NCBI GenBank assembly: GCA_973895155.1
Contig: OZ316894.1
Location: 13,246,828 to 13,310,827, forward strand
Reading direction: 5' to 3'
From: Marsupella aquatica
Taxonomy: Eukaryota; Plantae; Marchantiophyta
DNA: 64,000 nucleotides
A program made the position numbers and the translations under genes. Within the stretch, counting starts at the first letter, position 1. Each line of letters starts with the position of its first letter. Shown piece after piece: positions 5,666 to 54,693 of this stretch. The notes under the pieces are model-generated. The model was not told the DNA's origin. It worked only from the letters and a program-made list of their open reading frames with translations, and ran no database searches.

Positions 5666-5680
5666 TATCACCCCCACTAA
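5666..5680 (-). promoter_or_regulatory. polypurine tract of element C
   Basis: TTAGTGGGGGTGATA on the minus strand, abutting the 3' LTR. Confidence 0.7.
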
Positions 5681-5722
5681 ACCTGTGCAGCCTCCGGTCT
5701 GCACCAACCTTATGACCCAGCT

Positions 5723-8700
5723 TCAAAAGTCCTCTACATCACTCAAATCATACACATCTTGTAAATGAAATTTCAAACGTTGTTTGAAAAGCTTAACCCT
5801 CTTGCCTGCATAAGGAACTTGATGAATTGCTCCATCTAACTCTCGAACTGTGTATGTTGTATTTGGGTGAATAGTAACAACCACAAATGGCCCTCTTCAT
5901 CTTCTCATAAACTTAGCTTTTGTCGAATGTTGTTGCTCCAACCCTCCTTCTGCAATAAGAACCCAATCTCCTTCTTTGATTTGAATAGGTCTCAATCGAT
6001 GAGTCTTATCAAATCTGACCTTATTCTTCTCTCGTGCTTGCTTCACTTTCTCCATTGCAATGTCAATCTTTTCTGGAGTTGTTTGGAAATGTTCCATCCT
6101 CCTTGCAAGTAGCTCTTCATGTGATATCTGATCTTCCCAGTCAACTGTCCTCCAACTAAAAACATTCTCCTCTAATGGCATTAAAGGTAGATGCCCACTC
6201 ACTAATTCTGCCGGTGCATATCCTGTCACCGAACTACAAGTCATTCTATCTGCTAATAGAGCTAAAGGAAGTAAGTCTGGCCATCTTGATGCCTTTCCCT
6301 TGCATGATTTGACTAAGGCATTAACAATTGGTGGATGACCTCTCTCACTCTTGCCGTTTGCTTCTGGATTGTAAGATGTAGTTAGTTTTAAGCGGATATG
6401 AAATTTCTTGAAGAATGCCTTTGCCTCTTTGCTATCTAACTCTCCACGGTCAGCTCTCATGCGCCTAAAACATCCATGTCTAGCAATGATATCTTCTAAC
6501 ACAAACCTGCATACGGCTTCAGTCTTGTTAGAAGATAATGCCCTCCCTTCCACATACGAAGATAAGTCTTCTCTAGCTAACACTAAATATTTTGCACCTC
6601 TAATCCCTGGTGGCATATGAACGATATCTATACCCCATTGAAAATGTAAAGATAGAGGATGTGTAGGGTTCAAGCCATCTCTATGTTGAATCTTTGAGTA
6701 GTATTGGCAAATCTCACAAGATCCAACATATTCTCGAACATCCACATACATTCCAGCCCACCAGTAGAATCTTCTTAACTTTTCATATGTAGCCTGAACT
6801 CCACGATGCCCTGCTGCTTCAAGATCATGTGCCTCTTGTAATACTTGAACTTTCTCTCCCTCAGTATCAAGCACTCTCAGAGGTACTTGACTCCTTGCCT
6901 TTGGACGCCTCCATAAGTATCCATCTCAAACCAAGAACTTGTAAGCCTTCTTTCGAATCTTGCTGAATTCTTCATCACTCCATCTAGTGTCTCTCTCCAA
7001 TGTACTCAAATAACGTCCTATAACTAGCAACTCTCCTGAATATAGATCTTCATAGAATAACAACTCCTTAATTTGTCCCTCAATCTCACCATGTGAACAC
7101 TCAATACTATGCTTGCCTGATTTATATCTAGCTCTTGACAACATATCAGCCACTGGATTATCTTTTCCAGTTATGTGCTTCAGTTCTGGATTAAACATTC
7201 GGATAAAAGTTATCCACCTAAGCATAGCAATGTCGGGAGTATCACAGTTTATAATCATCCCAAGTAAGGGTAAGCAATCAGTTTCTAGAATCATGTTAGC
7301 TCCTATCAAGTAATCTCTCTCTTGCCTAAGTGCTAGTTTTGCTCCCCAAAGCTCTCTCTTTATCTGCGGATACTTCCGTTGTCTTTCGTTAAAGATCTTT
7401 GCTCCAAAACGAGCAACTGTTCTATGCCCATCATCATCATCTTGTCCCAATGCCCATCCTGCTCCATATGGACTCGCATCTATTGTAAGAACTATTGGAT
7501 GTACACCATCATACTTCAATGGGCGAAGCACAGGTGGACTTAACAAAGCTTCTTTCAAGTGCTGCATTGCTTCTACATGTTCACTTTTCCATATAAATCT
7601 TACATTCTTCTTAAGCAAGCCATATAATGGATGTGAAACATGTGAAAAATGTGGTATCCATATTCTGTAGAAGATACAACCTCCTAGAAACCTTCGTACC
7701 TCTGAAGTTGTTTGACAATCCTCCATTTGGCTGATTGCTTCCACCTTCTCCTTACTTGGCTTTCTTCCATAGGGCCCACACATCTGCCCAACCACTTTGA
7801 CTTCTCTCAAGCCAAATGCTGATTTTTCTCCTGAGAGTGTAACTCCCACCTCAATCAACTTCTTTAGTATAGCCCCTACATCCTTCATGTGTTCCCAAAC
7901 AAATTGACGTATCCCATCCTTTCGAAGTGTCTCATCCTTGAGTTCTTCCAAACATCCTTTGATTGGCATATCATCAAGGAATGGTCTAGTTTTCTGTGGA
8001 ATGAAAGACTCCAAAATCTTGTTCATAGCATTTTGCATATGTGCAACAGAATTAGTAGCACCTTGTGGCAAGGTGCACATACGCAAAAGTCCAAGTGGAG
8101 TTCTCATGGTGGTGATATCCCTACTACTTTGAGAAAGTTGGAATTGATCATACCCTGAGTACAAGTCTCCAATGGAATAGATGGCCCTCCCAGCAAAGTC
8201 TTCAGCATACTCATCTACCACAGGTCCAACTCCAACATTCCGAATTGTGACTTTGTTTGGTGGCTGCATGTCTTGAATGAAACGTAGCTTCCCATTCTTC
8301 TTCTGCACTGTGAACCACCGATTGGAGTATGGTGCATCTGATCTCTCAAGTATCTTAGCATCTAACTTCTCTTTCAACAATGCTATCAATTTTGATGTTA
8401 GTGCTCTTGGAACTGAAATTGGCTTCAAATCCCATGGTATGTGTGGAACTGTAAAAATAACCATTGGTGTTACCTTCTGTGGATCCACACATCCTATCTC
8501 CTCCATAGAAAAGAAAAATGCCCTCCCATGCTCTTTGATCATCTTTTTGAATGCCTCCTTCTCGATCATGGTAAGTAGTCCATCATCACCAATTTGCAAT
8601 TGGTTCAAAGTATCTTCTGTGAATGTATGTCCAATTTTTCTTTTATCTCTCAAACTAGGCTCCTTGCTAGCACTTCTTAAAATATCTCTTGCATCAGCTG

Positions 8701-9109
8701 GTAGAGGTGTGGCTGCTGGTCTAACCTTCTTATCTATTGTCTTGTACTTTGTGTTCACCTCAACCAACTCTTCTATATGCTGATATAGCAATGGGCCTAC
8801 TTCTATCTCACCCTTTCCATCATTCAAATCTACTATAACTTGTTGCAAAGTGGGACAACAACCTTGTTCATCTAGCACACCCTCTATGTTATCACTTAAA
8901 TCCATAACACCTTGACTAACTAACATAGCCTTACTTCTTTCAATTCTCTTTTTCAATTTTCTTGATGCCTCTCTAACTTGCATATATGAAACCTCTCTAT
9001 CTCTCCCTATAGCTACAAACGAAGACGAGGAAAATCTTATGTTTGATGAGTCACTCACATTGGCATCCTGCCTGCTCACCCTCATTAACGGGATGCCAAT
9101 CAGAAATTT
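5723..9109 (-). pseudogene. pol: element C pol (RT, RNase H, integrase) with two in-frame stops
   Basis: RWFTVQKKNGKLRFIQDMQPPN, GDLYSGYDQF, LPQGATNS, FLDD, ETDCLPLLGM, H..AGH..C..C, GIDIVHMP, YNPEANGKSER. TGA at 6926-6928 (FLV*DGYLWRR) and at 5897-5899 (RR*RGPF), all in one frame. Natural stop at 5723-5725. Confidence 0.92.
9060..9109 (-). promoter_or_regulatory. putative -1 programmed ribosomal frameshift signal (A AAU UUC followed by a stem-loop)
   Basis: Slippery heptamer AAATTTC (9109-9103) immediately before the gag TGA. Downstream TTGGCATCC...GGATGCCAA forms a perfect 9-bp stem. pol is open in the -1 frame across the site. Confidence 0.75.
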
Positions 9110-11340
9110 TCTTGGTCCTTCATCTCTTCACTTGCTCTCAGCTCCTTCCTATTTCTCACATGATCCGGGCGAACTGTTGGAAATTGGATAACACGAAGAT
9201 TATCCTTACTCTTGACTTTGGCCATATGAGTGCCATCATCAAGAACCTTAGTCTCTAGTCTCCATTCTGTAATGAAAGGTTGTCCTAGAAGAAGTGGATA
9301 AGGTAAGGAATCATGAACAAAGACATTGATGTCTTCAAGCACATTTCCTACCTTAAGCTTCACATCAGGACAAGCTCCCCACAAAGAATTGTGATTTGCA
9401 TTCACTGATTTCACCTTCCATTGGATGTCTCGATCCACCTTCCACCTTCCTTGGTTGTAGAGCTCTCTTGACATTAGATTCACCTCTGATCCTGAATCAA
9501 TAAGTGCCTTGATAGGACCTTTGACTCCAATCAGCTCCACCTCAACTTCATCACAAGCTCTTGCCCAATATGACTCCATTTCTTTTATAGATTTAGCATG
9601 ATAGGAATCTAGCTCAACTTTGTTGTCTTCAACTTGTACTGCACAAATGCTCACGCTCTTAGTTTCTCCTTCATTGTCTGAATCCTCCATCTCCCCAGCT
9701 AGAGCATGAGGACCCTCTTTGTAAAAACGTTTCTTCTTTGATCTTGTAAGAATTGCTTCTTGTATGTCTTTCCTCAAACTCCCAAAGAACTCCTCATTTG
9801 TAAAACCATGGGCTTCTTGCTTCCAAAACTTATCAACAATTCTCTCTGGTTCAATTGTTTGTTCCACATCACGGCCTAGTATCCACCCAGGTCCCTTTTT
9901 GGTTGACTTCTCATTCTTCTTCTCTTCCTCCATTGGTGAATCTGAAGTTTCTCTTCTTGGCATCTTTCCTCTTGGCTCATCACTTGAAGGAGTTTTGCGC
10001 TTGTCCTCCACTCTTGCTTCCCATGTAGCTCCAACTTCTGCAGTAATTGGGGCTATTAACACAGGAGCATCCCATCCAGTTTGTTGACGAATGTAGTCAG
10101 CAAGCTTTTTCTTTCCTGTCTCATCAAGTACCTTTTCTGAAAAACAACTTGTTGCAGCAAAAACATTAGGCTCGATTACAGTTGCTGCTGTGTCTACTCC
10201 TTCTGTTGCCAAATTTTTCTCCACTAAGGCTCTCATCCCTCCACGATTATTGTTGAGTGGTATAAGTTCCTCAATGTTGTAGTATGCAAGCTTCTTTTGT
10301 CCTTGCTCACCAACAAACTTCACAAGTCGATTTCGAAGTGCTGCAGAAAGTTCAGTGCAATCATTTCTTCTATGCTCCTTGCTGTCACACCACATGCAAT
10401 TCCATGTGCGATTTGTTGTTGTTGTAGTCTTGGTTGCTTGCGTCTGGTTTAGAACTTGGGTTGTAAGAATGGTCAAGTTCCTCATCAAATCAGCAAGCTC
10501 TTCAACTGCTCCTCCTTTGCCTTCTTGTGCTGTGGACTTGATCTCCTTCTTCTCACCCCCACTAGTAGTGTTATCCATCCTTGTAGTGATTGACGTCTTG
10601 GTTTGACTTGGAACTCCACTAATAGCCTCTTGATCCAAGTCTCTTCTTCTATGTCGATGACTTACCTTCATCACTGCCTTCTCAATGTTCTCCCAATTTG
10701 TAGAAGAGTCAGTACGATCTGGATCAATTAGATCCAAAGCATTCTCCAACTTATCCCTTAGCTTCTCATCTGCAGCTCTAAGAAATAGAGTACACCTCTG
10801 CATCCGGATGACTTGTGCCTCTGAATCTGGAAGTTGATTGAACTTCTTGTTGAACTCTCGCAATAGTTCTTGTGGCCCCAATTTCTTGTTCCTCTCATGG
10901 ACCCAATCACAAAATGTCACTTGTGTAATTCGATCAGCATCCTCCAATTGGAATTCCTCCTTCATGCATTTCTCAAAACACCTCCATGTCTTGTCTTTTG
11001 ATGCCTCAAGAACTATAGCATCAACGATCCCTTTTAATTCTAGCTCCACCAATGTTGAAAATTGACGAATTGCAACCTCTTTTGAAAGTTGCTCAATAGT
11101 AGCCTCTTGCCAATAGGTCTTCATGTAATGAGTTACATTACGACCATCAAATTGCCCATTCTTCTCAAGAACCTTCCTCAAGCACCTTGTTGCACAATGT
11201 GCTTGCTCTCTCTTTTGATTTTCTGCTGTATCGGTTTGTTTCATACTCTGCATCAAAGTTAACAACATTCTAGACATGGTATCCATGTCCATAGTGTTGG
11301 GGGACATACTTGAGTCTCCCATGTCAGTACTGTTAGGCAT
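9100..11340 (-). CDS. gag: element C gag-protease polyprotein (746 aa)
   Basis: Intact ORF with FDGRNVTHY, zinc knuckle CMWCDSKEHRRNDC and aspartic protease ALIDSGSEVNLM...LLLGQPF. Confidence 0.9.
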   Translation of the reverse strand: MPNSTDMGDSSMSPNTMDMDTMSRMLLTLMQSMKQTDTAENQKREQAHCATRCLRKVLEKNGQFDGRNVTHYMKTYWQEATIEQLSKEVAIRQFSTLVELELKGIVDAIVLEASKDKTWRCFEKCMKEEFQLEDADRITQVTFCDWVHERNKKLGPQELLREFNKKFNQLPDSEAQVIRMQRCTLFLRAADEKLRDKLENALDLIDPDRTDSSTNWENIEKAVMKVSHRHRRRDLDQEAISGVPSQTKTSITTRMDNTTSGGEKKEIKSTAQEGKGGAVEELADLMRNLTILTTQVLNQTQATKTTTTTNRTWNCMWCDSKEHRRNDCTELSAALRNRLVKFVGEQGQKKLAYYNIEELIPLNNNRGGMRALVEKNLATEGVDTAATVIEPNVFAATSCFSEKVLDETGKKKLADYIRQQTGWDAPVLIAPITAEVGATWEARVEDKRKTPSSDEPRGKMPRRETSDSPMEEEKKNEKSTKKGPGWILGRDVEQTIEPERIVDKFWKQEAHGFTNEEFFGSLRKDIQEAILTRSKKKRFYKEGPHALAGEMEDSDNEGETKSVSICAVQVEDNKVELDSYHAKSIKEMESYWARACDEVEVELIGVKGPIKALIDSGSEVNLMSRELYNQGRWKVDRDIQWKVKSVNANHNSLWGACPDVKLKVGNVLEDINVFVHDSLPYPLLLGQPFITEWRLETKVLDDGTHMAKVKSKDNLRVIQFPTVRPDHVRNRKELRASEEMKDQENF

Positions 11341-11486
11341 TGCTATATATCAACTTGTTTACTCTCTCGCAATGAATAGGCGCCCACCACCTAGGTGTCC
11401 CTAGACCAATTGTCTAGTAAAGCAAGTTAGCCTCTTCTAGTAATGCAATACTTCCTTTTTTTCTTCCAAAAATAGGCCCCAAGAGT

Positions 11487-11504
11487 TCCCCAGTATGATC
11501 GCCA
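11487..11504 (-). promoter_or_regulatory. primer binding site of element C (tRNA-Arg-like)
   Basis: TGGCGATCATACTGGGGA, 4 nt after the 5' LTR end. It resembles the TGGCGAC...CTGGGGA Arg-type PBS. Confidence 0.75.
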
Positions 11505-11508
11505 CTTA

Positions 11509-12901
11509 TGTCGGGGGAATCTTTAGTTCTTGGGAAGCACCGAGCTCTTGTTTTTCCTATCTTGGAAGAAACCTTTCCAAAATACGTCTTTTCTCACCTC
11601 ACATTACCCTTGCGATTCCCTTTGTCGATCAATTTCTCTCACCGTTATCCTCTAAAATATCTCTCACAGCCTTTGTCTCACTCTACGATGAGCGGCTTCC
11701 TCACACTAAGCCTCGAATCGGCCTATCCTCTTTCCACATAACTTACTTCCCAAGTCAAGTCATAGATTGCAATTTCCAACGAATCCTACAATTAGATAAG
11801 TCAATTATAGAAAACAAAGACTATGATCTTAAGATTTACCATAGATGATATAATCACAGGCTCTGGCATCCTAAGCATAACATTGTATCTTTAATCTCCA
11901 TATTTTCTAACTAAAACATCTCTACAATCAACCTTCTTACGGCATACCACTCTAATGTCAATAGATGAAGGAAAATCAGACACATTATTAGGAGGCCTAT
12001 TCAAATCTAACTCCGGTACATTTATGGATTGTCTATTAAAATCCATCTAATATAAAATAAAAATAGTTACATTCCATTCATTTCCATAAACAACAATCGG
12101 GTATACAAATGGTGCATCGCTATTCATAACTGTTTCCATTAACTCAAACCCAAAATGATAAAAAAAATGCATTCTCATGGTATGCTTGCTAAGACAATGA
12201 ATTCTAATTAAGAAAGGATTGACAAATGACACAGCAGGTGGGGGATAAACTCTAGGTACTCCATTTATCATATTATTCATTACAAGCACACTAAATTGAT
12301 CTCAAGACTAATAAACATAAAACATAAAATAGTTCTAAGGCTAACAATCAAGTTAGTACCCAAGCATGGAGGTAAATAATAAACAAGACACGTGCACAAG
12401 AGAGGAAGAGTTCCTTACAATATTGCGAGTCCAACACAATAGATCAAACAAATGCGAATGAGGAGAGTGTGCTCCTCTTCACTTTATTTATAGTGCCCCT
12501 TTGTGTTTTCCAAGAGGGCATGGATCGATGCCTTGACCCTTGGATGGAAGCCAAGTGGCAAGCATCAAGCACCTATAAGTGTGCTAGTACTATTCATGGT
12601 TGGTGGAACTACCGTGCGTAGTTGGTGGAATTATTACGCGTAATTGGTGAAACTACTATGCGTAATTGGTGCAACTACTATGCGTAGTTGGTGGAATTAC
12701 TATGCATCTAGTTTGTAAAACTACTATGCGTAAATGGTGGAACTACTGTGCATGTACCATTGTAAAATGTACATACTACATATAGAATGTAACATATATG
12801 CTCTAATAGTACTACTAAGAAGCTTTTAAGTAAAACTCTCTTCACATAAACTCAAATAACATAATATGGATTCTTGCTTTCTAAAAGGAATCCCCACGAC
12901 A
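11509..12901 (-). repeat. 5' LTR of element C (1393 bp)
   Basis: TGTCG...CGACA termini; direct repeat of 4185-5665, shorter by four 22-bp units. Confidence 0.95.
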
Positions 12902-14920
12902 ACGCGCGTCAACATACTCGGCTGCGGGGAAGGAGTATGTCCCTCACGGAAGAATGGCTCAGGATGATCTTTGGGTTACCCGAAGGTGACCATCGAGTCG
13001 AATCACGGGCTCCCGGGGGCAAGGGAGCCAAGTACCAATCTTCAAGTTTTCCCTCAGAGGGAGCAGTGGACAACGGGTTTGTGATGAAGACCTGCCTCAT
13101 CCCCGAGATAGCTGAGCGACTGGAGTTCCAGAGGTACACCCTCCACATGATGGAACCCCGGGGGGAGATCTCTGCCGCCCAGGTTATCCAGGTCGAGAAC
13201 TATCGACCTAGGAGGTGGGCGTCGTACTTCGCTAAGAAATTCCATGAAGAGATGGAGCGGCGAAGGAAGACGCTGTACATTGGCGGGAAGGCGTATTTCG
13301 CTAGCCACATCGAGATCATTCTTGAGTGGTATGCCCGATTTGATCGACAAACCCTTCCCCGTGTCAACGTTACAAAGCTGGTCCCAGCTAGGTGGGTTTT
13401 CTCGGCCTTGGAGAGACGGCCCCAACCCGAGGCCCGAAGTCCGGCGGACACGCCAGCTTCACCCACCCCACCTCCACAAGTAGCTGTAGTCGTAACCGAG
13501 GAGGTACCGGATGGGTCGGGTGTCGCAACCGTTGATGCGACCCAACAGGCCGGGCTAAGTACAGAAGTCGGTATGGCGGAGGTCTTACCCGAGCTCGGTT
13601 CTCCCAAAGACCCACCGGTGGCTATTCCGGAGAACCGGACATTGCTACAGGAGGACACTCCAGCCCCTTCCAACATTACGTCCCCAGGGCTGGATGTCAC
13701 TGCCCCGGCCCCCGCGCATGTTGACGTCTGCCCGTGCCCAACTCCGGATAGGCACAACCTGGACCACCCGGAACTCTTCGTACCGGGTACATTTCTGAAC
13801 GGGCTTCTGGGAGATTTCTCTCATCAGATTGCCCGGGATACCGGGGAGTTCATGGCCCGGAAGGTAGCCTGTTTCTTCAATCAGGAGTTGGTTGCCGCAG
13901 TAAAGGTAGGACGGGCCCAGTCAGAGGCCCTTCAGAGGATAGAGCGGTACCGGGTGGAGTCCGTGTACCTAAAGAACGAAGTTGTGGCTCAAGAGGCTGA
14001 GCTTCGGCAACTACGACCCAAGATTGCAGCCGCCGATGAGTTGTTAGCAAAGGCGCACGCTCTTACCACCCTAGCCGAACAGGCCAAAGCTGGGAACGAG
14101 GCCGAGATTACACGACTCCGGAACCAGATTGACAGTTTGAAGAATCAAACTGTCACCTGGCAGAAAGACCTGGAGGAGGCCGAGGAACGGGCCCAACGGG
14201 ACACGGCGGAGATAGCCATGCTGCAGGCCGAGGTGGCGCGGCTCCAAACCGAGGCCGAGAAGCAGGACCAGCTGGCGGGTAAACTGACAAGTGATGCCCA
14301 GCAGTTGGAGGAGGCTTGTCAGGAGGCAACAGAGGAGACGGACGCGGCGAGGCGAGAGAACGAATCTCTGCTGGACCAAGTCCAGCTCCTCAAGGCGGAC
14401 AATGACAAGCTTCGAAGGCAGCGGGATGGCCGCTCCCATTCAGGCGGCTCTGGCAAGCGTGCCAGGCATTAGCGGTGGAGTAGGAATAGATTAGGATTAG
14501 GACTAGCTTAGTCAGGCTCTTGGGACAGGCACCTGCCTTCGGTACAACATTGCTGCCATGCTGTGACGCCGCCGGTATGGCGGTTAATGAGTGATTCGGT
14601 CTAACTGCGCTTGGCACGCGCGTTAGGAGTATCTTAGACCGCTATTATTAGTATAACGACAGTATTTAGGTAATCATTATGGGTAGGATATCATTAGGCA
14701 ATAAGGGGGAATTCAGGTTCGGACTGGCGGTTGGTCGCTATTCGCACACCCGGGTTACGAGCGTGGAGGGGCCCCTCCCTCGGGTCCGTATAACAAACTT
14801 AAGGAAGCGGCCACTGAGACGTGCTGACTCAGACTGGCGGAGTGGCCGGCACACCACAAGCGTGAGCGGTTCAGCCTATGGGCGTCGAGGAGACGTCGTG
14901 GGATCGACAAGCCCTCAAGG

Positions 14921-14927
14921 TATAAAA
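14921..14927 (+). promoter_or_regulatory. TATA box upstream of the LTR-encoded ORF
   Basis: TATAAAA(GG) about 108 nt before the ATG, conserved in the copies at 3007 and 47432. Confidence 0.65.
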
Positions 14928-15028
14928 GGGGAGCCAACCCTTTGTAGTGCACCAGTCCATCAATCCACGCGCCAGCTTCGACCCCAGCTCTGTCGTTCGC
15001 TCTAAGTCGCCACTACTATCTCCTCTGA

Positions 15029-17665
15029 ATGTCGCACACGATCCTCTCCAGCCCGGCCATTCGATTCTGGACGCAGTTCCTATCTACCGGAAGGCACTTG
15101 GCCGACTCATTGAAACACGCCAACCCGCGCCGATAGGAAATCGAACGTGAGTACGAGAGAGCCATCCGCCTAGCAGGACGACACCACTACATCCTTAACT
15201 TTGACTACCCGTCTCAGAGCGAGCTTTACCAACCTGCAGAGGTATCCGGGTACTTCTTCAACGGAGACAAATATATCGGGTTCTGGGAAGCATTGCTTCG
15301 GCTTCCGGACGAGGTCTTCAATATCCCGGGTACGATCGACTTGCAGCGACATCACTTCGACCACATCCCTGCTCAGGTTCGGGCTATCATCAACAGCGAG
15401 TCCAGCACTACCCGTTCGACAAGGTCGTCTGCACTCGCTTCGGAGAACTTCTACCAACACCTACAGAGTTTCATAGGAACTCGGCCAGCAACCAACATGA
15501 CCAACTCAATCGTACCCGTACCCGTACCCATACAACCTCAGGCTCAGCTTCAGCTTCAGCCTCAGCCGCAGCCTAGCCAAACCCCACCACCGATCGCCCA
15601 GCCAGCACAAGTACGCTCCATCATCAATGCTGTGGATATTAGCGATGACGACGAGGCTACTCTACCCTTGACCAGGCGGCCAAGAGGAGCAAGCGCTCAG
15701 GGGGCCGACACTATATCGTCCCCACCCCCTGCTCTGACCCCAGGAGCGGCCCCGACAGACAACATGGTGACCGTGGCCGACCCGGGCCCGTTACTAACGG
15801 CAGTGGCACTACCCAGGCCCGGTCGGGAGGATGGGGAGGTATCACCTTCCCCGAGCCAGTCACGGGGGAAGAAGAGGAAGGAATCCGCCACTGCATCCGG
15901 GTTACCGTTGCCCACGGTAGCCGTGGCCAAGGTGACGATGCACCGCATGGGGGAAAACGTTCACAAAAACATCCTCCATCCCAAGCATGCGGTGTACCTG
16001 AAGACTCAGGGATTCAAGCACCTCGCCTCCCTCCCCTGGAACACTTGCAGGTACTACGAGGAGGACATGACGGAGTTCGTGAGGAATTATGACGACGCGC
16101 GTCAACATACTCGGCTGCGGGGAAGGAGTATGTCCCTCATGGAAGAACGGCTTAGGATGATCTTCGGGTTACCCGAAGGTGACCATCGAGTCGAATCACG
16201 GGCTCCCGGGGGCAAGGGAGCCAAGTACCAATCTTCAAGTTTTCCCTCAGAGGGAGCAGTGGACAACGGGTTCGTGATGAAGACCTGCCTCATCCCCGAG
16301 ATAGCTGAGCGACTGGAGTTCCAGAGGTACGCCCTCCACATGATGGAACCCCGGGGGGAGATCTCCGCCGCCCAGGTTATCCAGGTCGAGAACTATCGAC
16401 CTAGGAGGTGGGCGTCGTACTTTGCTAAGAAATTCCATGAAGAGATGGAGCGGCGAAGGAAGACGCTGTACATTGGCGGGAAGGCGTATTTCGCTAGCCA
16501 CATCGAGATCATTCTTGAGTGGTACGCCCGGTTTGATCGACAAACCCTTCCCCGTGTCAACGTTACAAAGCTGGTCCCAGCTAGGTGGGTTTTCCCGGCC
16601 TTGGAGAGGCGGCCCCAACCCGAGGCCCGAAGTCCGGCGGACACGCCAGTTTCACCCACCCCACCTCCACAAGTAGCTGTAGTCGTAACCGAGGAGGTAC
16701 CGGATGGGTCGGGTGTCGCAACCGTTGATGCGACCCAACAGGCCGGGCTAAGTACAGAAGTCAGTACGGCGGAGGTCTTACCCAAACCCGGTTCTCCCAA
16801 AGACCCACCGGTGGCTATCCCGGAGAACCGGACATTGCTACAGGAGGACGCTCCAGCCCCTTCCAATGTTACGTCCCCAGGGCTGGACGTCACTGCCCCG
16901 GCCCCCGCGCGTGTTGACGTCTGCCCGTGCCCAACTCCGGACAGGCACAACTTGGACCACCCGGAACTTTTCGTACCGGGTACATTTCTGAACGGGCTTC
17001 TGGGAGATTTCTCTCATCAGATTGCCCGGGATACCGGGGAGTTCATGGCCCGGAAGGTAGCCTGTTTCTTCAATCAGGAGTTGGTTGCCGCAGTAAAGGT
17101 AGGACGGGCCCAGTCAGAGGCCCTTCAGAGGATAGAGCGGTACCGGGTGGAGTCCGTGTACCTAAAGAACGAAGTTGCGGCTCAAGAGGCTGAGCTTCAG
17201 CAACTACGATCCAAGGTTGCAGCCGCCGATGAGTTGTTAGCAAAGGCGCACGCTCTTACCGCCCTAGCCGAACAGGCCAAAGCTGGGAACGAGGCCGAGA
17301 TTACACGACTCCGGAACCAGATTGACAGTTTGAAGAATCAAACTGTCACCTGGCAGAAAGACCTGGAGGAGGCCGAGGAACGGGCCCAACGGGACACGGC
17401 GGAGATAGCCACGCTGCAGGCCGAGGTGGCGCGGCTCCAAACCAAGGCCGAGAAGCAGGACCAGCTGGCGGGTAAACTGACAAGTGACGCCCAGCAGTTG
17501 GAGGAGGCTTGTCAGGAGGCAGGAGAGGAGACGAACGCGGCGAGGCGAGAGAACAAATCTCTGCTGGACCAGATCCAGCTCCTCAAGGCGGAAAATGACA
17601 GGCTTCGAAGGCAGCGGGATGGCCGCTCCCATTCAGGCGGCTCTGGCAAGCGTGCCAGGCATTAG
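15029..17665 (+). CDS. LTR-encoded ~878-aa protein: N-terminal domain, Pro/Gln-rich linker, conserved central domain, C-terminal coiled coil, basic KRARH tail; one in-frame TAG at 15134
   Basis: The 790-aa ORF 15293-17665 extends in frame to ATG 15029. TAG at codon 36 is TAC (Tyr) in the other copies. The central segment EFVRNYDD..RLRGRSMSL..LRMIFGLPEG resembles plant gypsy accessory-ORF domains by eye. Confidence 0.85.
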
Positions 17666-17879
17666 CGGCGGAGTAGGAATAGATTAGGATTAGGACTAGC
17701 TTAGTCAGGTTCTTGGGACAGGCACCTGCCTTCGGTACAGCATTGCTGCCATGCTGTCCAGCCTGCGTAGATTAGGATCTTCTAATAAGACACAGCCATT
17801 TCCGGCCTGACTGTCAGCTTAGTTATGACCTTAGTCAGTGAATCTTCGGTGAGAGGACACCCCGTCCCTCGTCCCTTAG

Positions 17880-17886
17880 TATTTAG
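17880..17886 (+). promoter_or_regulatory. putative main LTR TATA-like box (TATTTAG), downstream of the LTR ORF
   Basis: Precedes the conserved CCCC(T)CGGTAGAGGCA-GGGGG block. The related ORF-less LTR has GTATATAG at the equivalent position (minus strand, near 56007-56014). Confidence 0.5.
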
Positions 17887-19371
17887 TGCACCCCTCGGTA
17901 GAGGCAAGGGGGGGTTTTTAGTTGCAGAGTTGGGCGTCCGCGGTAGATGCGGGGAGTCCCGACCTCTGGGAATGAAAGAGTACCAAGGGGAGGGGGTAGG
18001 ACTAAGCTCGCCGGGCGAGTGCGGAGCCGGGCTCCGTTGTAGTGTGCACCCTCGGCCTTGAACCTGTTCATTTCGGGGCTGTCGGGTCAACTAAGTGTAC
18101 GCGTATGTTCCCTTTGTAGTAAAATCCTTTCCCATCATTTTCCTTCGTGTAAATCGAGATTGTATGCATGTGCGCGTGTATGTGTGTGGGTTTCTCGTAT
18201 ATGGGTGGCAGCGCCAGGCCAAACGCACTACCTGAGACATGCACAGGGTGCAGCCTACGGGTAAGTGGTTGCGAGCACGGGTTGAGGACCTGTATCATCG
18301 AATCCGGATCGAAGGCGGATAGCACGAAGGCTTAGAAGCCCTTAAGCCGGGGTCGATCCTGCTATCAACTAAGGTACGTTCCGACAGCGGAACACAAACC
18401 ATACCTAGGAGGTGTCCGTATTTAGCAGTATGCGCACTTAGCGCTAGTTTACGAGAGTAAGGTGCATTACGTGCTTCCCTTCCTGCCCGAACCCTCAGAT
18501 TTACGAGGGATGTGCCCGTCTAAGCTGAAATCTGAGTTAAGGCCGCAGCCGATGACGTGACACATGCTGTCCAGCCTGCGTAGATTAGGATCTTCTAATA
18601 AGACACAGCCGTTTCCGGCCTGACTGTCAGCTTAGTTAAGACCTTAGTCAATGAATCTTCGGCGAGAGGACACCCCGTCCCTCGGCCCTTAGTATTTAGT
18701 GCACCCCTCGGTAGAGGGGGGGGGTTTTAGTTGCAGAGTTGGGCGTCCGCGGTATGTGTGGGGAGTCCCGACCTCTGGGAATGAAAGAGTACCAAGGGGA
18801 GGGGGTAGGACTAAGCTCGTCGGGCGAGTGCGGAGCCGGGCTCCGTTGTAGTGTGCACCCTCGGCCTTGAACCTGTTCATTCCGGGGCTGTCGGGTCAAC
18901 TAAGTGTACGCATATGTTCCCTTTGTAGTAAAATCCTTTCCCATCATTTTCCTTTGTGTAAATCGAGATTGTATGCATGTGCACGTGTATGTGTGTGGGT
19001 TTCTCGTATATGGGTGGCAGTGCCAGGCCGAACGCACTACCCGAGACGTGCACAGGGTGCAGCCTGTGGGTAAGTGGTTGCGAGCACGGGTTGAGGACCT
19101 GTATCATCAAATCCGGATCGAAGGCGGATAGCACGAAGGCTTAGAAGCCCTTAAGCCGGGGTCGATCCTGCTATCGACTAAGGTAAGTTCCGGCGGCGGA
19201 ACACAAACCATACCTAGGAGGTGTCCGTATTTAGCAGTATGTGCACTTAGCGCTAGTTTACGAGAATAAGGTGCATTACGTGCTTCCCTTCCTGCCCGAA
19301 CCCTCAGATTTACGAGGGATGTGCCCGTCTAAGCTGAAGTCTGAGTTAAGGCCGCAGCCGATGACATGACA

Positions 19372-20952
19372 AGAAGCCCACTTCCTAGGCCGGTAGTCTT
19401 GGGCAACGGATATCTTGCCCCTTGGCTCCATCAATTGGAGGGCGTACCTCTGGAACTCCAGCCACTCCGCTATCTTCAGGATAAGGCATGTCCTCATCAA
19501 GAATCCATTGTCCACTCCTTCTTTGGCCGGGAAGCTAGAGGATTGATACTTGGCTCCCTTGCCCTCGGGAGCCCGTGATTCCACCCGATTTACTCCTTCG
19601 GGTAGGCCAAAGAACATCTTGGGCCGTGCCTTGCTGAGGGACATCACTCTTCCATGCGCACGGGTTTGTTGGCGGGCCTCATCAAAGTTCTGGATGAACT
19701 TCGTCATATCCTGCCCATAGTACCTGCTAGCATTCCAAGGGAGAGAGGCGAGGTGCTCAAACCCTTGGGTCTTTAGGTAGCATGCATGCTTGGGGTGGAG
19801 AATGTTCTTGTGAACATTCTCCCCCATGCAATGCATGGTCAGCTTGGCCACCAATACTGTGGCCAAAGGCAGCCCGAATACAGCCGCGGGTTCCTTTCTC
19901 TTCCTACCCTGAGACTGGTTCTCGGGGTGCCTTGTAGAGGGGGACATCTCCCCGTCCTCTCTATCGGGCGGCAGCAGCGCTACCACCGTAAGTACTGGTG
20001 CTGGGGCCGCCACTGTCACCGTGTCGTCTACCAGAGCTGTCACTCAAGTCCAGGCTTGTGCGGGTGGTGACGTGTTGCCTGGCTCGTGTGTGCTTGCCCC
20101 TTGAGGTCGCCGGTGCAGGGGAGGGTGAGCCTCTTTGTCCTTGGAACTAATGTTCACCATGTTCACCACGGATCGTACCCGGAGGGGTGGTGCAACCGGT
20201 GGTGGAGATCGGCTTGGCTAAGGCCAAGGTGGTGTTGATGAGGGCACCAATGAATTGGCAACGGTTGTAGCTGGACGAGGCGCCATAAGATTCATCAAGT
20301 CTGAGGGGAAGCCAAATAAGGTCAGGAAGGATGTCTCACCCGTATTTGCATTACCAAACTAATAGTCTATGGAAGCCTGAACTTTGGCGGGGATATGGTC
20401 AAAGTGGTGTTGCTGCAAGTCTATTGTGCCCGGGAGTGTGAAGACCTTGTCCGGAAGCCAAAGGAGCGCTTCCTGGAAGCCGACATAGTTTGGACCATTG
20501 AAGAAGTATTTGCAGATCTTGTCGGCTTGACAAAGCTTGCTCTAGAACGGGAGGTTGAAATCACCATTATAGTGAGAGCGCTCGGCTAGGCGGATGATTC
20601 GTTTGTATTGCCTTTCGGTTTTGTACCGGCGCGGGTTGACTTTGGCCAACGACTTCGCTAAATGATTTCCGATGGATAGAAATTGAAGCCAAAATTGAAG
20701 GGCCAAACTAGACATAATCGTGACAGACGGACCCGGGGGGCATCTTACACGCTTATAATCCGGTGGTACGAATGGCACTCCGCCGCCAGCCCGAGCGTAA
20801 ATGCTCCTTATTGACTAATGATGTCCTAGTCGTGATTACTACCTACTTTAGTGTCGTTATGCTAATAACTATGGACTACTATGTCCATAGTGCGCGTGCT
20901 AAGCATGGATTAGACCGAATCACTCATTAACCGCCGTGCTGGCGGCGTCACA
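19372..20952 (-). repeat. 3' LTR of B (part) with the N-terminal half of the LTR ORF
   Basis: Begins TGTGACGCC at 20952 after the PPT. Encodes ..QFWLQFLSIGNHLAKS.. and ..KNILHPKHACYLKTQGFEHLASLPWN.. A deletion near 20725 removes the TATA/ATG segment seen in the 47-kb copy. Confidence 0.85.
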
Positions 20953-23900
20953 TAGCTCCCTACTTAAGTGTGAAGCATCCTCGTGAACATTGCTATTGGT
21001 GGTATGGTCTTGATGATGGTACTTCTTCACACCATCATAACAAACTCGCGTCGGAAGTAAATCACCGGTGTACATTGCAAGCTTGATGGAGGCGTTTGGG
21101 TAAATTTGATTGACAAGGAAAGGTCCTAGCCAGCAAGTATGCAACTTCTTGGGAAATTGCATGTACCTGTTATCGTACAGAAGGACCAGGTCGCCTGTTA
21201 TGATGTCAATCTTCCGTAGTCCTTTGTCGTGCTACTTCTTGGAAATTGCCTGTTGCTTCACTGCGTGTCGGGCAACTAGTACCCGGGCTTCTTCTAATGC
21301 TTCAATCTGGTAAGCTCTGCCCAAAGAACTATCGGCCTCAAATAAGCAATCCTGAATACTTGCCTGTGGGTTGTGAATTTCAAACTTGACCGGAACCAAT
21401 GAGTGTTGCCCGAACACGAGAAAGTACGGACTATGACTGGTAGTAGTCTTGTAAGCCAAATTGTATGAGTACACAATGGCGTATAATTTGTCATCCCAAT
21501 CTGTTTTGTGCGCGGCTACTGTTTTGTTGAGGATCTTCCCAATGATGCCATTCGCCCTCTCCGTTAGTTCGTTGGCTTTTGGATGGTATGGGGTGGTCTT
21601 GCGGTGCTTGACCAGGTACCGTTCCGTAAGGCGCTCTACGGTTTCATTGATGAAATGCGTTCCCCGATTGTTGACTAACTCCAAAGGTGGCCCAAAGCGA
21701 GTTAAGATTTGCTCATACAAGAACCTGGCGCTGGTAGCGGCATCATCCTTCACCATAGCCCGAGCTTCCACCCATTTGGTGGAGTGGTCTATGGCTAGTA
21801 GGATGTACCTACACCTGCGTCTTTGGGTAACCAGAGTGAAGGGCCCAATGTAATCAATGGCCCACTTCTCAAATGGTGCTAGTGGAAGTACGGAGGTGAG
21901 TGGGTGATTGTGGGCTTTCCTTGGGGCGCCAGCCCGTTGACATAAATCGCACCCTTTATTAAAGCGTTGCACATCCCGATGTAACGTAGGCCACCAATAC
22001 CCCAAATCCAAGATCTTACGAGCAGTAGTGATGGCCGCAAAATGGCCTCCAGCTTCCTCTTTGTGTCCGGCTCGCATAACGATGAGCATTTCCTTGTATT
22101 CTAGGCAGCGCCGTAGCTTCCCATTAACTCCCTCTTTGTGTAAGTGGCCTTGTATCATCACATACGGTCCAGCCTTACGTAAGAACACGGCGGCGGCCTC
22201 CTGATTGATTCCATCGGGGATGCAGCCCGTTAGGAGGAAGGTAATAAGCGGTCCGTACCACGTGGGTGTACCTGCCCCTACGTGGAATAATTCCTCATCT
22301 GGAAAGGTATCGTTAATAGACTGATCTACGGGTACGCCGTCTAGTCTTGAAAAGAAATTGGTGTTGAGGTGTGCCTTCCCCGACCAAACCTGTACCTTGT
22401 AGTTAAACTCCTATAAGAGCAATACCCACCTGGCTATCCATCCCATGACATCTGCTTTGTTCACCATATACTTTAAACTATCATGATCCGTATGAAAGAT
22501 GACTTTATATCCAAGCAGGTAGTGTCAAAACTTCTTACACAAGTAGATAATGCCTAGAGCTTCTTGATCGGTGGGGGAATAATTCTTCTCGGTCATAAAT
22601 AGCTAACGGCTAGCAAAATAGATGGGGTGGTTGCAACCGTCCTTGTCCAGTTGGCTTAGTATGGACCCGATGCAAAACCCCAAAACGTTGACGTACACAT
22701 GGAATTCCTTATTCCAATCTGGGGTTACCATGATAGGTGCCGTGATGAGTCGGCGCCAAAGTTCTTCAAAAGCTATATGTCCCCGGGGTGTCTCTTCAAT
22801 CACTGCATCCTTCTTCATCATCTCCGTTAGGGGTAACGTAATTTTAGCAAAATCTTTGATGAATCGACGATAGTACCCTATGCAACCCAAGAATGACCGT
22901 ACTGCTTTGTGATCCACGGGGAATACTACCGCCATCCAGGCCACAACCTTCTCTTGGTCTACCTCGATACCCCGTTTGGACACACGATGCTCGAGTAACA
23001 CCCCTTCCTCTACTTTGAAAAAACATTTAGTCGGATGCAACTTTAAATTTACTTCTCTGCATTGTTGTAGCGTACGACGTAAATGTTTGGGGTGCATGGC
23101 GATGGTTCCAAAGATGGCAAAGTCATCAATAAATATTTCCAGGAATTCCCGTAGAAAGTCATGGAAGATATTCATCATGAGTCTCTGGAACATGGCCGGC
23201 GTTACACAGTCCAAATGGCATTCTGCAAAATGCAAACGTCCCCCACTCCATAGTGAACGTTGTTTTAAGCTGATCTGAGAGTCCGATCCAGATTCAATTG
23301 TAGCCCGAATACCCATCGAGGAATGTATAGATTTCATTACAGGCTACCATATCCAGAACCATATCCATGAATGGTAACGGGTAGTGATCCTTCCGGGTGG
23401 CGTCATTTAGTTTACGATAGTCCTGGCATATGCAAATTTTGGGCTTCCCATCCGTACCTCCCTTCTTTGGCACAATGACAATGTGAGACACCCAATCACT
23501 GGCCATTAATTACCGGGTAGATGATATCCGTGGCCAGAAGATGATCAATCTCCTCCTTCACCAAAATGGAGTACCTTGGGTTCATGCAGCGTTGCCGCCG
23601 CCGTACGGCGTGAGCTCCTAAGTTTAAATTGATCGTGTGTTCTCCCAACTCGGGGGAGACTCCAGTCAAATCATGATGGCACCATATCTTCATACTCCTT
23701 AAGCAGTGCTTGGATGGATTTTTCCGCATCCCCCTTCAGAGCATGGCCTAAGTTGAAAGACTTATCCATCCCAATGGTGTACTTCCGGTAGTGTTCCTTC
23801 CTTATGACCTCCACTTGATTACGCAAGTTAGGGTCTAGACTTGCATCTAGCTTGGCTAACCAAACCCCTCCGTACATTGGTGGCGTCAGGATTGGCTTCG

Positions 23901-24777
23901 GAATTGGGGTTGCTTCCTCTTGTAGCAGGATGGATGGATCCTAGGAGACTCGTTTCTTATGCTTTGGCCTTGGGGTTTCAGCCTCGGGCAATGCTTTGGT
24001 AGGTTCCCGGTCAGTAGGGTCAGCATCGGTAGAGGAAGCATCAGCTCCCTGCTTAGATGGAGCCGTATCCTCCGTATCCTCCGAGTTGATGGCTTGCACT
24101 TGCTGTTCATCCACCGGAATGCTAGAGAAGCTCGGGGTGGTCCCGCCTATAACGACCTTTGGGTAATTCAGGAGATGCGTCTCCCGAGTTGCCTCTATTC
24201 CAAAAACATCTTCCTTAGAAAGGGATGAGATGAGCTCAATCATATTGAGCTCTTCTTCCTCCAAGGTCTCTGAATCATACTCCTTGGGTCCCTGTGGAGT
24301 CTCGCCCTGATAATTGTCCATCGCCCAGGATGCTCGTACCATGGGTGTCCCAAATCGTAGTTCCTTCTTTCCCCAGTTTGTGACTACGCGGCCACCGTAC
24401 AGCCACGGCCTTCCCAATAGGACCGGGTAAGAAGATGGTCGGACCGGCCTCATGACCAAAAAGTTTAGATAAAACTCCACACCTCCTACAAGGGTGAGAA
24501 CCTCGGTGAGCGTGCCCAGGGGGAGTACTCTTGCACCATTTGCTAATCAAATAGCTTGGGTTGTGGGTTGATACATGAGGTACCCCAATTTTATAGATGT
24601 TTCCTTAGTCATAATATTGACTCCCACTCCGCCGTCCATGAGAACCATCTTGATGGTACAGCCCTTGATCTCAATCGAGATGTCCGGTGCCCCCAGGTCT
24701 TCGCAGATCATATTACAATCCACAACACCAACACGTGGTAGCCGTCTTCTCTGTCGGCCCGTGAGCAACTCTCTCAA
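20920..24777 (-). pseudogene. pol: element B protease-RT-RNaseH-integrase, fragmented
   Basis: VLMDGGVGVNIM protease, ICQDYRKLN, FIDD, AIDYIGP, KANELTER, spread over several frames with stops. Confidence 0.9.
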
Positions 24778-24899
24778 TTGTTGCCGGTATTGGGGATTAT
24801 TCTGGAGTAGTTATCCTACTGTCGCTGTGACTGGGCAACTCTTCACATCTTGCCAAATATTGTATTCCTCCTTCTTTTCTTCCTTTGGCTGTTGCTTTG

Positions 24900-26812
24900 C
24901 TTTCGCTTCCCGCTTCTCCTGCTCTTCTCGTTGAGCGGCCTCAGTTGCTTTTAGGTCTTTATCGATCGCTTTCTAGTACTCTCATGCTTCGTATGCTTCC
25001 AACTGTTGCTTTACCAACTCTTTGATGCGGGGATAGAATAGCTTTGGGTCATCCCAACGGTAGTCGTCGTCCTCCTCCGAGGGTATTTCTATCGTTGGCT
25101 GCACTGGCATGGTATCTTGCTTCCGTCAATGTTTCTCTTCCTGTTTCTCTTGCTTTTGTTCGGATCTGGTTGACACTTGGTAACATTTGGCCTCATTTGA
25201 CGGATTGGGGTGTTTCGTTACATCAACCAGGTTGACCCACTCGGTGGTATCATCTTGCCATTCTACGGTGATCATTTGAACGACTGCATCGCTTGGAGCT
25301 GGTCCACTTGGGGCCGGCCTAGCCGCGCTTGCTCGTGCGGCTATCACCAATGGGCAATTAGCTGTGGAATGAGCCTCCGTTTTGCAAACTTGACACAGTG
25401 GCATGCCTCGGCCATCTCCTTGCCGTTTTTGTTCAGTGCATTCCCTTGCAAAGTGACTGGGCTTCTCACAGTTGTAACAAACTGGGGATCGCCAAATCCC
25501 TGGCTTAGGAGGAATGCTCAAGTTACTTATAACTTGGAAGCCTCTACCACGATTTGGGTATGGATATGCAGTTATGCCAGCCAAATTTCAAGGACCCACC
25601 GTAGAAATCTGATACACGGAGTCAGGGGGTTCTTTGAAGAAGTACTTCGTGGACTCCGGTTCTGGCCCCGGGCTGTCGACATCATCCAATTCCACTTGAT
25701 GGACTCGATGCTTCCATCTTGGGCATTCTTGCACCGCATGGCCCGATTGGAAGCACTTGGAGGACCAAGCATGCGCTCGGGTTTTGGATGGCTTCTTCTT
25801 CTCCACAGGCTTCTCCGCAAGATGTACCAACAATGCCTTGAGATGATCAGTGATTTCATTGAGTTTGTCTGTTCGGCAGCCTTGGGATCTGGTACCATTC
25901 TTTGAACGCGGGGCTTGACTTTCTCCTCCTTAGCGCACCATTTCTTCTTCTTGCTTCGGGCCTTGCTCTCCAAATCACTACCCAATGAGCTTGAGGTGGA
26001 GGAGCCACTAGTTGAAGTGAAATCTGAACTAGATCCCGTCTCTGAACTGGACGAGGTCAAATGATGTTTCTTCTTCTTCTTGCGCTTCTTCTTCGTCTTG
26101 TTGTCTGATTCGGAGTCAGTGTGACTGAAGGTCTGGTACTTGCTCTTCTTTTGTCATGCCCATTGGCTTTGTCGGGAGTTATAGGTGGACTCCCTGTATG
26201 TTTTGACGCACGCAATGGCTGCCTACATTGAAATTGGGTTATTTTGGCGTACCCAAAATTGCATATCCGTTGGCAATCCATGTAGAAACCACGTAAGCTG
26301 GAGCGCATCGCCTAGCTTGGGCCAGATCTTGGTAGTGAGTTTTTGGAACTTCTGAATGAATTTTTGCAAGAACTCCTTCTTCCCCATGCAAAGTTGACCA
26401 ATCTTCAACAAGGAACGCTGCTCCGCTCCAATGGCACAAAACTCTTGTAACAACGCGGCTTGGAATTGTGGCCATGTGATTATGGGCTGCAACAAGTTGT
26501 ACCATGGACGAGCTTCTCCTCGTATTACTCAGAGAGAATTGTCAACTTAATGGTGTCCTCTCTGTTGGCCTTAGCAGTGGCTTCAAACTCATCCAACCAT
26601 TCATCCGGATCGTCCCCATGACGTCCCTTGAAAGGTCGGTAATGAAACCGTGATTGCTGTGATACTTGTGGGGGAGCTTGGGCCGCACAAGCCACAGCCG
26701 GAGGGGCTGCTGCCATGGGTACTGGTGGCGGAGGTGGCGCTGGCAGTGGTGCACCAAGGGCCGGACCAGGATCTGCTGGACCGGATCTTGAAGGTCTTGG
26801 TGGTATGTTCAT
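24900..26812 (-). pseudogene. gag: element B gag, fragmented
   Basis: FKGRHGDDPDEWLDEFE, ITWPQFQAALLQEF, WFLHGL, and zinc knuckles CFQSGHAVQEC, CYNCEKPSHFAREC, CQVCKTEAHSTANC. Confidence 0.85.
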
Positions 26813-27031
26813 CCGTCAAGGCGATTGTGAGTCCTCCAAGTCTGAAGATTTGGAACTTGTTGTGGTTGCACTCTCTCATTCGCTTATCAATCTCCTTAAG
26901 TAAGCCGCTTGAGAACGAGTGACAGGCATCTACTCTTATAAATGTAATGGTTAGCAACTATTTGGGGCCCAAGGTCCTGTGATCAGGTACATACGCACAT
27001 GTCTCTATTAGACTACTATACTTAGAATGCC

Positions 27032-27048
27032 CCCTCCATCTAGCGCCA
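27032..27048 (-). promoter_or_regulatory. putative PBS of element B
   Basis: TGGCGCTAGATGGAGGG, similar to the TGGCGCTAGAAGGAGG motif of Tat-type elements, 13 nt downstream of the LTR end. Confidence 0.65.
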
Positions 27049-27061
27049 AAAACAAAGGCTA

Positions 27062-54019: not shown

Positions 54020-54693
54020 TAAATCTTGACATTATTGCTTATCTCACTGATGAAATGATTCATGAAACACTTCCTTCACCAATCAAAGGCCGCCCACCCT
54101 CATAGAATCAAATTCACCTACGCACCAGGGATCCAATTTCAATTCATAACTTAGAACATACCTCACAAAATCATCACATTTAATCTATAGACTTGCTACC
54201 CTTCCTGATCGAGTCCAATGCAACTTCTCCTCGTGAAAAAGAAAAGCCCTGAGAAAAGCCTTTTAAACTGGGAACTCCCTAAATTGTGTCAATCATCAAG
54301 TATGTACTCTGTCTAGTATCCTTGCTTCTCCTCTTCAAAAACATAAGCAAATCAATTGAATTTAAAGTACCTCAATTTTGTTGATTATGGTTGCCAATAC
54401 TGATTTGATCTGCTTGACCTTCCTCTCCATGCTCTTTCTTGAAGTTCCTATTTGGATTCAAATGTTATCAGCAAAGCTTCAGACCCTAATAAATTTGTAG
54501 CTTCATTGACCCTCCTTTTTGCACTCATTCCCCATGCTTTGAAGGCAACACGTGTTAGAGCATGGATCTCACATCATAGCACGGAACTTGCTCTTTCAAT
54601 CAATGTCACGCGATTGACATGGGTCTTAACACCAAAAACGTCACTATGGGTGCCAAAACCATCTCCTTGTACCTGAGGATCACGAAGGGATGT

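Follow-up and report, generated by a model that had tools for sequence, protein, structure and literature searches.

Nested Ty3/gypsy elements and a gene-bearing solo LTR

The window analysed here is a stretch of 64,000 nucleotides from the liverwort Marsupella aquatica (GenBank assembly GCA_973895155.1, contig OZ316894.1, positions 13,246,828 to 13,310,827). At 14562-18562 it carries a solo long terminal repeat (LTR) of a Ty3/gypsy retrotransposon, within which lies an accessory open reading frame (ORF) of 878 codons (15029-17665; both on the plus strand, as are all features below unless the minus strand is named). The LTR was delimited by target duplication, self-alignment and contig flanks. 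It begins with TGTGAC, ends with GTGACA and is flanked by 5 bp of identical bases (14557-14561 and 18563-18567). Because TG..CA ends and a target duplication coincide, the length of the LTR unit is 4,001 bp. The ORF is thus entirely contained in the LTR, as had originally been predicted. A tandem duplication of a cassette was ruled out, since the 5-bp duplication marks the 4-kb unit as an insertion. Sequencing contigs covered the whole unit evenly in four of four runs, and in three of the four many contigs switched to unlike flanks ahead of 14562.

The solo LTR is inserted into the 3′ LTR of another family member, element A, which is part of a nest of Ty3/gypsy elements across the window that was resolved from self-alignment and junctions. 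The pol region of element A (2-2680; reverse transcriptase, RNase H and integrase, assigned with Pfam) is adjoined, directly behind integrase, by a conserved motif, called the pre-PPT motif below, and the polypurine tract (PPT; the two together at 2612-2647). The PPT ends at 2647 and the 3′ LTR starts at 2648, so that the integrase stop codon (2678-2680) is located ten codons into the LTR. This 3′ LTR is 96-97% identical to the solo LTR and spans 2648-19371 in three pieces (2648-4186, 12898-14561 and 18568-19371), split by the solo LTR and by a nested gypsy element (about 4187-12897). The latter is unrelated and lies on the minus strand; its near-identical LTRs (98% over 1.2 kb) contain 22-nt tandem repeats.

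A second subfamily is represented by element B (19373-28361, minus strand; gag-pol and PPT) and by copy C, a truncated LTR (47071-49786). Element B comprises a 5′ LTR remnant (28361-27062), a site from 27048 resembling a primer-binding site (PBS), and a 3′ LTR (20952-19373). Members of the family nest in one another: the solo LTR (14557-18567) in an LTR of its own family, and element A in the 3′ LTR of element B (19371-19373). The PBS-like site (27061-27031, minus strand; in the related metagenomic locus L003, 7564-7595) starts 11-13 nt past the LTR end rather than at 0-5 nt, behind a similar T-rich spacer in both. Between protease and reverse transcriptase of element B (about 24045-24065, minus strand) lies a second copy of the PPT-like purine tract, possibly a central PPT. 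The window end cuts a further long open frame (62670-64000), which has a coiled-coil tail and gave no match to the profile of the ORF's core domain.

The window also contains a solo LTR of a related, repeated family without the ORF (54604-56987, minus strand; 2,384 bp, with a 5-bp duplication). It has no frame over 105 codons. In three of four sequencing runs its summed contig depth was ∼100-fold that of its flanks, and in the fourth 15- to 70-fold, a depth that is no copy number. Its insertion is polymorphic, an empty site being present in two of the four runs. At the place where the other family carries the gene, the U3 of the ORF-less LTR has short tandem repeats. At 56841 and 56691 (minus strand) are two extra junctions resembling a TG start, ∼150 nt apart and the first behind a purine tract, which may be relics of older LTR edges.

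Selection on the accessory gene and its predicted fold

Between subfamilies, the ratio of nonsynonymous to synonymous divergence (dN/dS) of the ORF was 0.13-0.24 in six of six segments, the first 120 codons included; wrong-frame controls gave 1.24 and 2.17. P ranged from 6e-9 to 1e-32, and dS (1.0-1.5) was near the pol value (1.48). The ORF is a real gene under purifying selection. It is broken in all four window copies: the solo LTR has a stop at codon 36 (15134-15136), element A has stops at codons 51 and 107, copy C contains a frameshift and many stops, and element B has lost the ATG.

Three regions were discerned in the protein. The N-terminal domain (15029-15394; dN/dS 0.18 and 0.24) is common to P0121 and P0133, gave a poor structural model and matched unnamed streptophyte clusters only. 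The core domain (15899-16606) directly follows a basic KKRK patch, one of the basic patches in the protein. The C-terminal region (17108-17623) had coiled-coil Pfam matches only, all under cut-off. An env-like 3′ ORF was ruled out: the PPT precedes the ORF, and no transmembrane segment was found over the 842-residue open part (highest 19-residue hydropathy, 0.95). A full profile search retrieved 44 relatives of the core at E up to 0.001, a few of which match other parts. A word-indexed protein search with the ORF gave no matches, no relative was found in viral contigs, and a prokaryote genome search returned one fragment.

The core is predicted to adopt a DNA-binding fold of the VANC21/PMD type. 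Its AF2 (AlphaFold2) model had a pLDDT of 91, and the top Foldseek match was VANC21 bound to DNA (E 0.024, prob 0.98, TMq 0.49); in VIA, VANC21 also came first (Z 7.5, rmsd 4.4, 202 aligned; next row Z 2.2). For the homologue of locus L019, which is only 17-18% identical (model pLDDT 79), VANC21 again headed the lists of Foldseek (E 0.18, prob 0.90, TMq 0.56) and VIA (Z 8.5, rmsd 3.7, 192 aligned; next row Z 2.1). VANC21 thus ranked first in four of four PDB searches with two models, the second of which is not fully independent support because its alignment shares rows with that of the first. An atlas search offered two kinds of cluster as leads, DUF1985 and PMD, at 0.85. Pfam Transposase_32 matched 3 of 18 locus ORFs under cut-off (L019, L057 and L058). 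Neither the viral structure models (no fold match) nor a PDB sequence search gave a match to the core. The VIA list for the window core included a VP30 row, though a very weak one (Z 2.0). Two downstream ORFs in related loci, L034 6958-7800 and L041 2767-3420, scored slightly over the cut-off for Pfam Transcript_VP30, the family of the C-terminal domain of Ebola VP30.

The VANC domain corresponds to DUF1985 and resembles PMD (10.1101/2024.09.27.615353; PMC13547354), and VANC binds short motifs in the non-coding DNA of its own transposon, from which it strips silent marks (PMC10398659). The window protein would probably serve its own element as an anti-silencing or activating factor, a role that can only be inferred, because a fold shows no function. 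Three observations speak against the assignment. The fold scores are middling, on predicted models, and identity to VANC21 is 11-12%. A Pfam PMD or DUF1985 match was found neither for the window protein nor for any of 35 homologues at E 0.01. Finally, the pile-up of motifs resembling VANC targets is marginal in family A, where the top 6-mer was reached by 11 of 200 shuffles. The same test gave 6 of 200 for B/C and 0-1 of 200 for L005, L006, L007, L057 and the ORF-less LTR; in the LTRs of these four loci the pile-up is strong. None was seen in L003 and L019. In the non-coding LTR of L005 (1-1394), L006 and L007, the piled-up 6-mer contains CCGG (35 copies in L005 versus 1.8 expected), resembling the build-up of VANC targets; L057 has piled-up motifs of its own. 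The predicted VANC-like fold is the main addition to the original prediction.

Candidate promoters and the gene order in relatives

Ahead of the ORF lies TATA1 (14921-14929), likely its promoter. The sequence TATAAAAGG occurs exactly three times in the window, at 3007, 14921 and 47432, always on the plus strand, and the first ATG follows at +108 in all three copies with no ATG between (47540 in copy C). This agrees to the nucleotide with the distance of ∼108 nt given in the original prediction. In the fourth copy, the 3′ LTR of element B (20952 downwards), both the box and the ORF ATG are deleted. TATA1 is identical in subfamilies A and C, as is GCACCA at +28 to +33 (CA at +30), which is followed by a pyrimidine-rich leader; box, CA and leader are conserved across subfamilies despite a dS above 1. 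Transcription would start near 14951-14954. No TATA in the LTR other than TATA1 has the full consensus, and a TATAWAW match arose in 9% of shuffles of the pre-ORF region. A third, weaker TATA-like box, TATAACAA, lies at 14789-14796 and in copy C at 47297.

Downstream of the ORF stop lies TATA2 (TATTTAG, 17880-17886), the candidate promoter of the genomic RNA, which would start in the G run at 17908-17914. TATTTA can work as a TATA box. TATTTAG is present three times per LTR (14663, 17880 and 18419) and elsewhere in the window at 18693 and 27749 (the latter on the minus strand), and subfamily B retains it only at the 17880 position. There, the block is 81% identical between subfamilies, compared with 61% for the 214 nt ahead; the interval 17666-17879 is the least conserved non-coding part. 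A C run, a GGTAGAG core and a G run form an inverted repeat immediately after TATA2 (17891-17914), present in all four window copies that cover the site. Because shuffles give matches by chance (39% for TATA2-like motifs in the post-ORF region and 9% ahead of the ORF), only the conservation of the boxes counts, not the motif match.

The ORF-less LTR bears on both boxes. It lacks TATA1, and shares with the gene-bearing LTR three colinear blocks from TATA2 to the end. Its TATA2 block contains TATATAG at 56014 (GTATATAG at 56015, minus strand). The second block (17951-18093; blastn E 3e-5) is likely R, the repeated part of the LTR, and the third (18329-18447; blastn E 3e-8), with two small inverted repeats, likely U5, its unique 5′ part. 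The earlier statement that TATTTAG at 17880 occupies the position of the relative's box was borne out at the level of the conserved block, the motif alone being at chance. The post-ORF part of the gene-bearing LTR (897 nt) is comparable with the 990-nt ORF-free LTR of L003. The TATA2 block was found within an LTR at none of 81 related loci, and metagenomes scanned for the pattern of the inverted repeat in U5 gave no matches. The post-ORF regions of relatives align neither with the window nor with one another, except for L004/L005.

These 81 loci consist of 80 metagenomic integrase relatives, kept of 238, and the prokaryote-genome fragment; the metagenomic ones are short-read contigs that may merge copies. 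Most of the integrase relatives that carry a name come from Calypogeia and Riccia, which are liverworts. The core domain was present behind integrase in 11 of the 81 loci (iterated profile, with later rounds including earlier hits). The pre-PPT motif was likewise found in 11, nine of them in its training set: directly behind integrase in nine (L001, L002, L004-L009 and L048) and behind the ORF in two (L003 and L019). Overall, the ORF lies before the PPT at four loci, whereas the ORF or its start lies after it at eight. Of the latter calls, five were made by profile and those for L005, L008 and L048 by eye, L048 being almost a copy of L007; L001 breaks off too soon for a call. At L004 and L005, matching LTR ends and a PBS identify the motif junction as the LTR start. 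L003 shows the other layout in full: integrase, a 450-nt spacer, ORF, PPT, a 990-nt LTR, PBS and gag. In L057 (1-4710) and L058 (765-9740), pol continues in frame beyond integrase into the accessory domain, and a PPT comes after it. L014 was dropped as a locus with the ORF in the LTR, as its contig ends inside the ORF and the motif is absent.

In a 22-row integrase tree (midpoint root, eight rows unlabelled), there is one change of layout (93/93; seen in 94% of 200 bootstrap trees), the ORF-before-PPT rows falling outside, and the same group was recovered at 92/89 with 35 rows. The presence of both layouts in relatives and a single change on the integrase tree suggest that the classic 3′ position was where the gene lay before it came into the LTR. 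TATA-like boxes also precede homologous ORFs. At L019, TATTTAA lies 107 nt ahead of the ATG of an ORF that is still before the PPT, while the LTR has its own TATAAAG; ahead of LTR-internal ORFs, TATATAA was picked by eye in L002 and L008, and TATTTAA in L005 and L009. The A/T swap between these upstream boxes is the same as that between TATA2 and the box of the ORF-less LTR. At L007, TATAAAG lies 311 nt behind the LTR-internal ORF. No clean TATA box was seen before the ORF in L004, L006 and L007. Together with the conserved TATA1, the CA at +30 and the pyrimidine leader, the boxes before homologous ORFs support the earlier claim of an upstream promoter of the ORF's own, which is well supported as far as sequence comparison goes.

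The PPT sets the 5′ edge of U3, the unique 3′ part of the LTR, whereas the ends of the RNA define R and U5; a PPT moved ahead of a cassette adds that cassette to U3. An ancestor would have carried promoter and ORF between integrase and PPT, and the unit of PPT and LTR start would have come to lie ahead of this cassette once. Plus-strand priming determines no more than the edge of U3, so the cassette would have become part of U3 and left R and U5 unchanged. The ORF would be transcribed from its own TATA box at 14921 into an mRNA that would extend past TATA2 to the common poly(A) site in R; genomic RNA would start near 17910 behind the conserved TATA2. With a start in the G run 28-34 nt past TATA2, the hairpin would form only across the U3/R border and might serve as a switch for the 3′ end. 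Each insertion would hold two gene copies, and a solo LTR keeps one. Because gene and likely promoter lie in the LTR, a leftover solo LTR would be able to make the protein.

An ORF in U3 with TATA1 of its own, and TATA2 as the main promoter from which genomic RNA starts near 17910, is considered probable. A number of findings weigh against it. TATA2 is off-consensus and without a pyrimidine patch behind it, and a match to TAT[AT]TA/TATAAA arises in 39% of 1000 post-ORF shuffles. The invariant hairpin core 17 nt past TATA2 resembles an RNA element as much as part of a promoter, and AATAA(A/G) occurs about 100 nt upstream of the block in A, B and the ORF-less LTR. The ORF-less LTR need not rely on TATA2, because it has a perfect TATAAAA at 56743, which aligns by eye with TATAACAA at 14789; a further TATA-like box is located near +230 to +245 in both families. 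Among relatives, L006 has no clear TATA in the 873 nt behind the ORF, and L007 none within one mismatch before it. As to descent, the window ORF groups apart from the L003 and L002-L007 ORFs (12-17% identity, long branches), which weakens simple descent, and the pre-PPT motif profile found no relic PPT behind the window ORF.

Several of these findings would fit a single start upstream, at TATA1 or the 14789 box, with the ORF as the first gene in an R of ∼3 kb and the 17880 block as an RNA signal for poly(A), packaging or splicing. TATA1 as the sole full-consensus box, AATAA(A/G) ahead of the block in three families, and the folding of the block in all three (z of the inverted repeat -0.64 in A, -1.87 in B and -3.25, the best, in the ORF-less LTR) accord with it, and an R of 2 kb has been proposed from sequence for rice Retrosat2 (PMC3485330). 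Yet the ORF-less family is repeated and polymorphic despite lacking TATA1, the L019 cassette already has its own TATA-like box outside the LTR, gag would lie behind an 878-codon gene and a leader of about 4 kb, and two changes (PPT and start site) would be required, not one; this arrangement is rather unlikely. Alternatively, the ORF might lie in U3 with TATA1 while genomic RNA is made from a TATA-less promoter within 17666-17880, in which case the hairpin would be at the RNA 5′ end and TATTTAG no TATA box. The sequence invariance of the hairpin core, the missing pyrimidine patch, and the L003 LTR and L006 post-ORF region without an obvious TATA at the expected place are in line with such a start. 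It is decidedly unlikely, as this interval is the least conserved non-coding part, has no blastn match to the ORF-less LTR, and the TATATA/TATTTA swap is the one found at the relatives' upstream boxes. That every one of the four window copies is broken might suggest a dead passenger ORF, or a 4-kb unit that is an artefact of assembly or of tandem repetition. Such a reading is very improbable and largely refuted: the low dN/dS with its P values, the target duplication, the even contig cover in four of four runs and the same layout in independent metagenomic contigs contradict it.

As to history, it is quite possible that no PPT shift took place in this family and that a promoter-ORF cassette from another element recombined into an ORF-less U3 or replaced an older LTR gene, which is compatible with the ORF in U3. 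For the window ORF, the ORF and integrase trees disagree; its LTR is preceded by the full pre-PPT motif, not by the purine tract seen behind integrase in L003, L014 and L018; and the first 250 nt may be common to the ORF-less LTR (in one of three pairwise tests the real pair outdid all 500 shuffles). Conversely, nhmmer found no 5′ homology between the two LTRs, the ORF tree is weak because identities are 10-20%, with long branches, and among L002-L007 both trees, of ORF and of integrase, are consistent with a shift that began from a layout like that of L003. The claim that the PPT moved ahead of a 3′ accessory ORF is thus supported at the lineage level, by both layouts and the single change; it is weaker for the window copy itself, whose ORF belongs to another subfamily than the closest ORF-before-PPT relative and has no old PPT behind it. 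Insertion or swap of a cassette would explain the change of gene order equally well. The integrase stop inside the LTR, which had been taken to fit the shift, was rejected as its trace: in eight of eight relatives with the motif behind integrase, the stop precedes the LTR start, and the overlap is special to elements A and B. Purine tracts lie right behind the integrase stop in L003 (3750-3772), L014 (2300-2325), L018 (3090-3125), L021 and L022, where the true PPT is, or may be, downstream of the ORF; as old PPT copies they were rejected, being seen by eye only and without a score from the motif profile. All in all, the original prediction appears right in outline about the history, and its two-promoter reading appears to be the best one.

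Relatives that carry the gene before the PPT, and others that carry it after, show a route by which an internal gene can enter an LTR. If U3 is coding, formation of a solo LTR removes the element and leaves its regulator. The VANC21-like fold suggests a concrete function, open to testing, for a class of retrotransposon accessory proteins of unsettled role. More tentatively, this bryophyte gypsy LTR may be a self-contained anti-silencing unit, in which a U3 promoter and a VANC-like gene keep their own LTR active, solo LTRs supply the factor in trans and ORF-less sisters may exploit it. A VANC-like function of the protein would extend sequence-specific anti-silencing from dicot DNA transposons to early-land-plant retrotransposons.

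Comparison with known elements

The family resembles the Athila lineage in lacking both a chromodomain and an additional RNase H and in having a 5-bp duplication. The pol order of element A (reverse transcriptase, RNase H, integrase; no chromodomain by Pfam) is that of Athila in REXdb. Reverse transcriptase runs into a single RNase H stretch, followed by the integrase zinc finger, and no archaeal-type RNase H lies there or after integrase. Both solo LTRs checked have 5-bp target duplications, as in Athila (PMC6317226 supplement 3). Phygy and Selgy were excluded, for which 4 bp (NCGN in Phygy) would be expected. The PBS-like site of element B contains TGGCGC 13 nt behind the LTR; the Athila criterion is a PBS for tRNA-Asp, Asn or Ala. 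The likeness to Athila is drawn from these features; the integrase trees hold unclassified loci only.

BARE1 is a Ty1/copia element. It has a TATA1 and a TATA2 in one plant LTR, as does the window family, although no gene is described between its boxes (cited in PMC3485330). U3, R and U5 are hard to place from sequence (PMC11656987). Conserved and likely regulatory accessory ORFs are known from Ogre (PMD), Retand (TRP28), Athila (ORF-1) and Grande, whose accessory gene has a known promoter of its own, as proposed for the window ORF; unlike the latter, they have been described in the internal region, either ahead of gag or in the stretch from pol to the 3′ LTR, and none is placed inside an LTR in the passages covered (PMC6317226, PMC7264820, PMC11963269). 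Plant surveys put extra ORFs in the internal region (the same papers and PMC3485330), and the accessible parts of PMC11569226, PMC1560396 and PMC12885004 contain nothing on LTR-internal genes. Nowhere in the literature covered was a plant LTR described as containing an ORF; subscription papers and bioRxiv supplements, outside that scope, may hold one.

In mouse mammary tumour virus (MMTV), the message from the promoter P2 is spliced to the ORF in the 3′ LTR, unlike the window arrangement, where the box directly precedes the ORF. MMTV is also a vertebrate retrovirus encoding an immune superantigen, with no sequence or fold link seen. Its sag gene nevertheless resembles the window ORF in lying wholly in U3, with a second promoter, P2, besides P1 (PMC9412291). 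MAIN, MAIL1 and MAIL2 (PMD-C) are host genes, and the window family is without a Pfam PMD match; they share their fold with the VANC DUF1985 and act at short promoter motifs against silencing, and PMD-A clades are retrotransposon-encoded (10.1101/2024.09.27.615353). VANC itself differs in having been described in dicot DNA transposons, in its low identity and in its tandem target motifs, which are not clear in the window family. It is nonetheless the best structural match: VANC of Arabidopsis VANDAL (Mutator-like; PDB 9lnj/9lnk), like the window protein, combines a globular domain with a coiled coil and is encoded by an accessory gene of a transposon (PMC10398659, PMC13547354).

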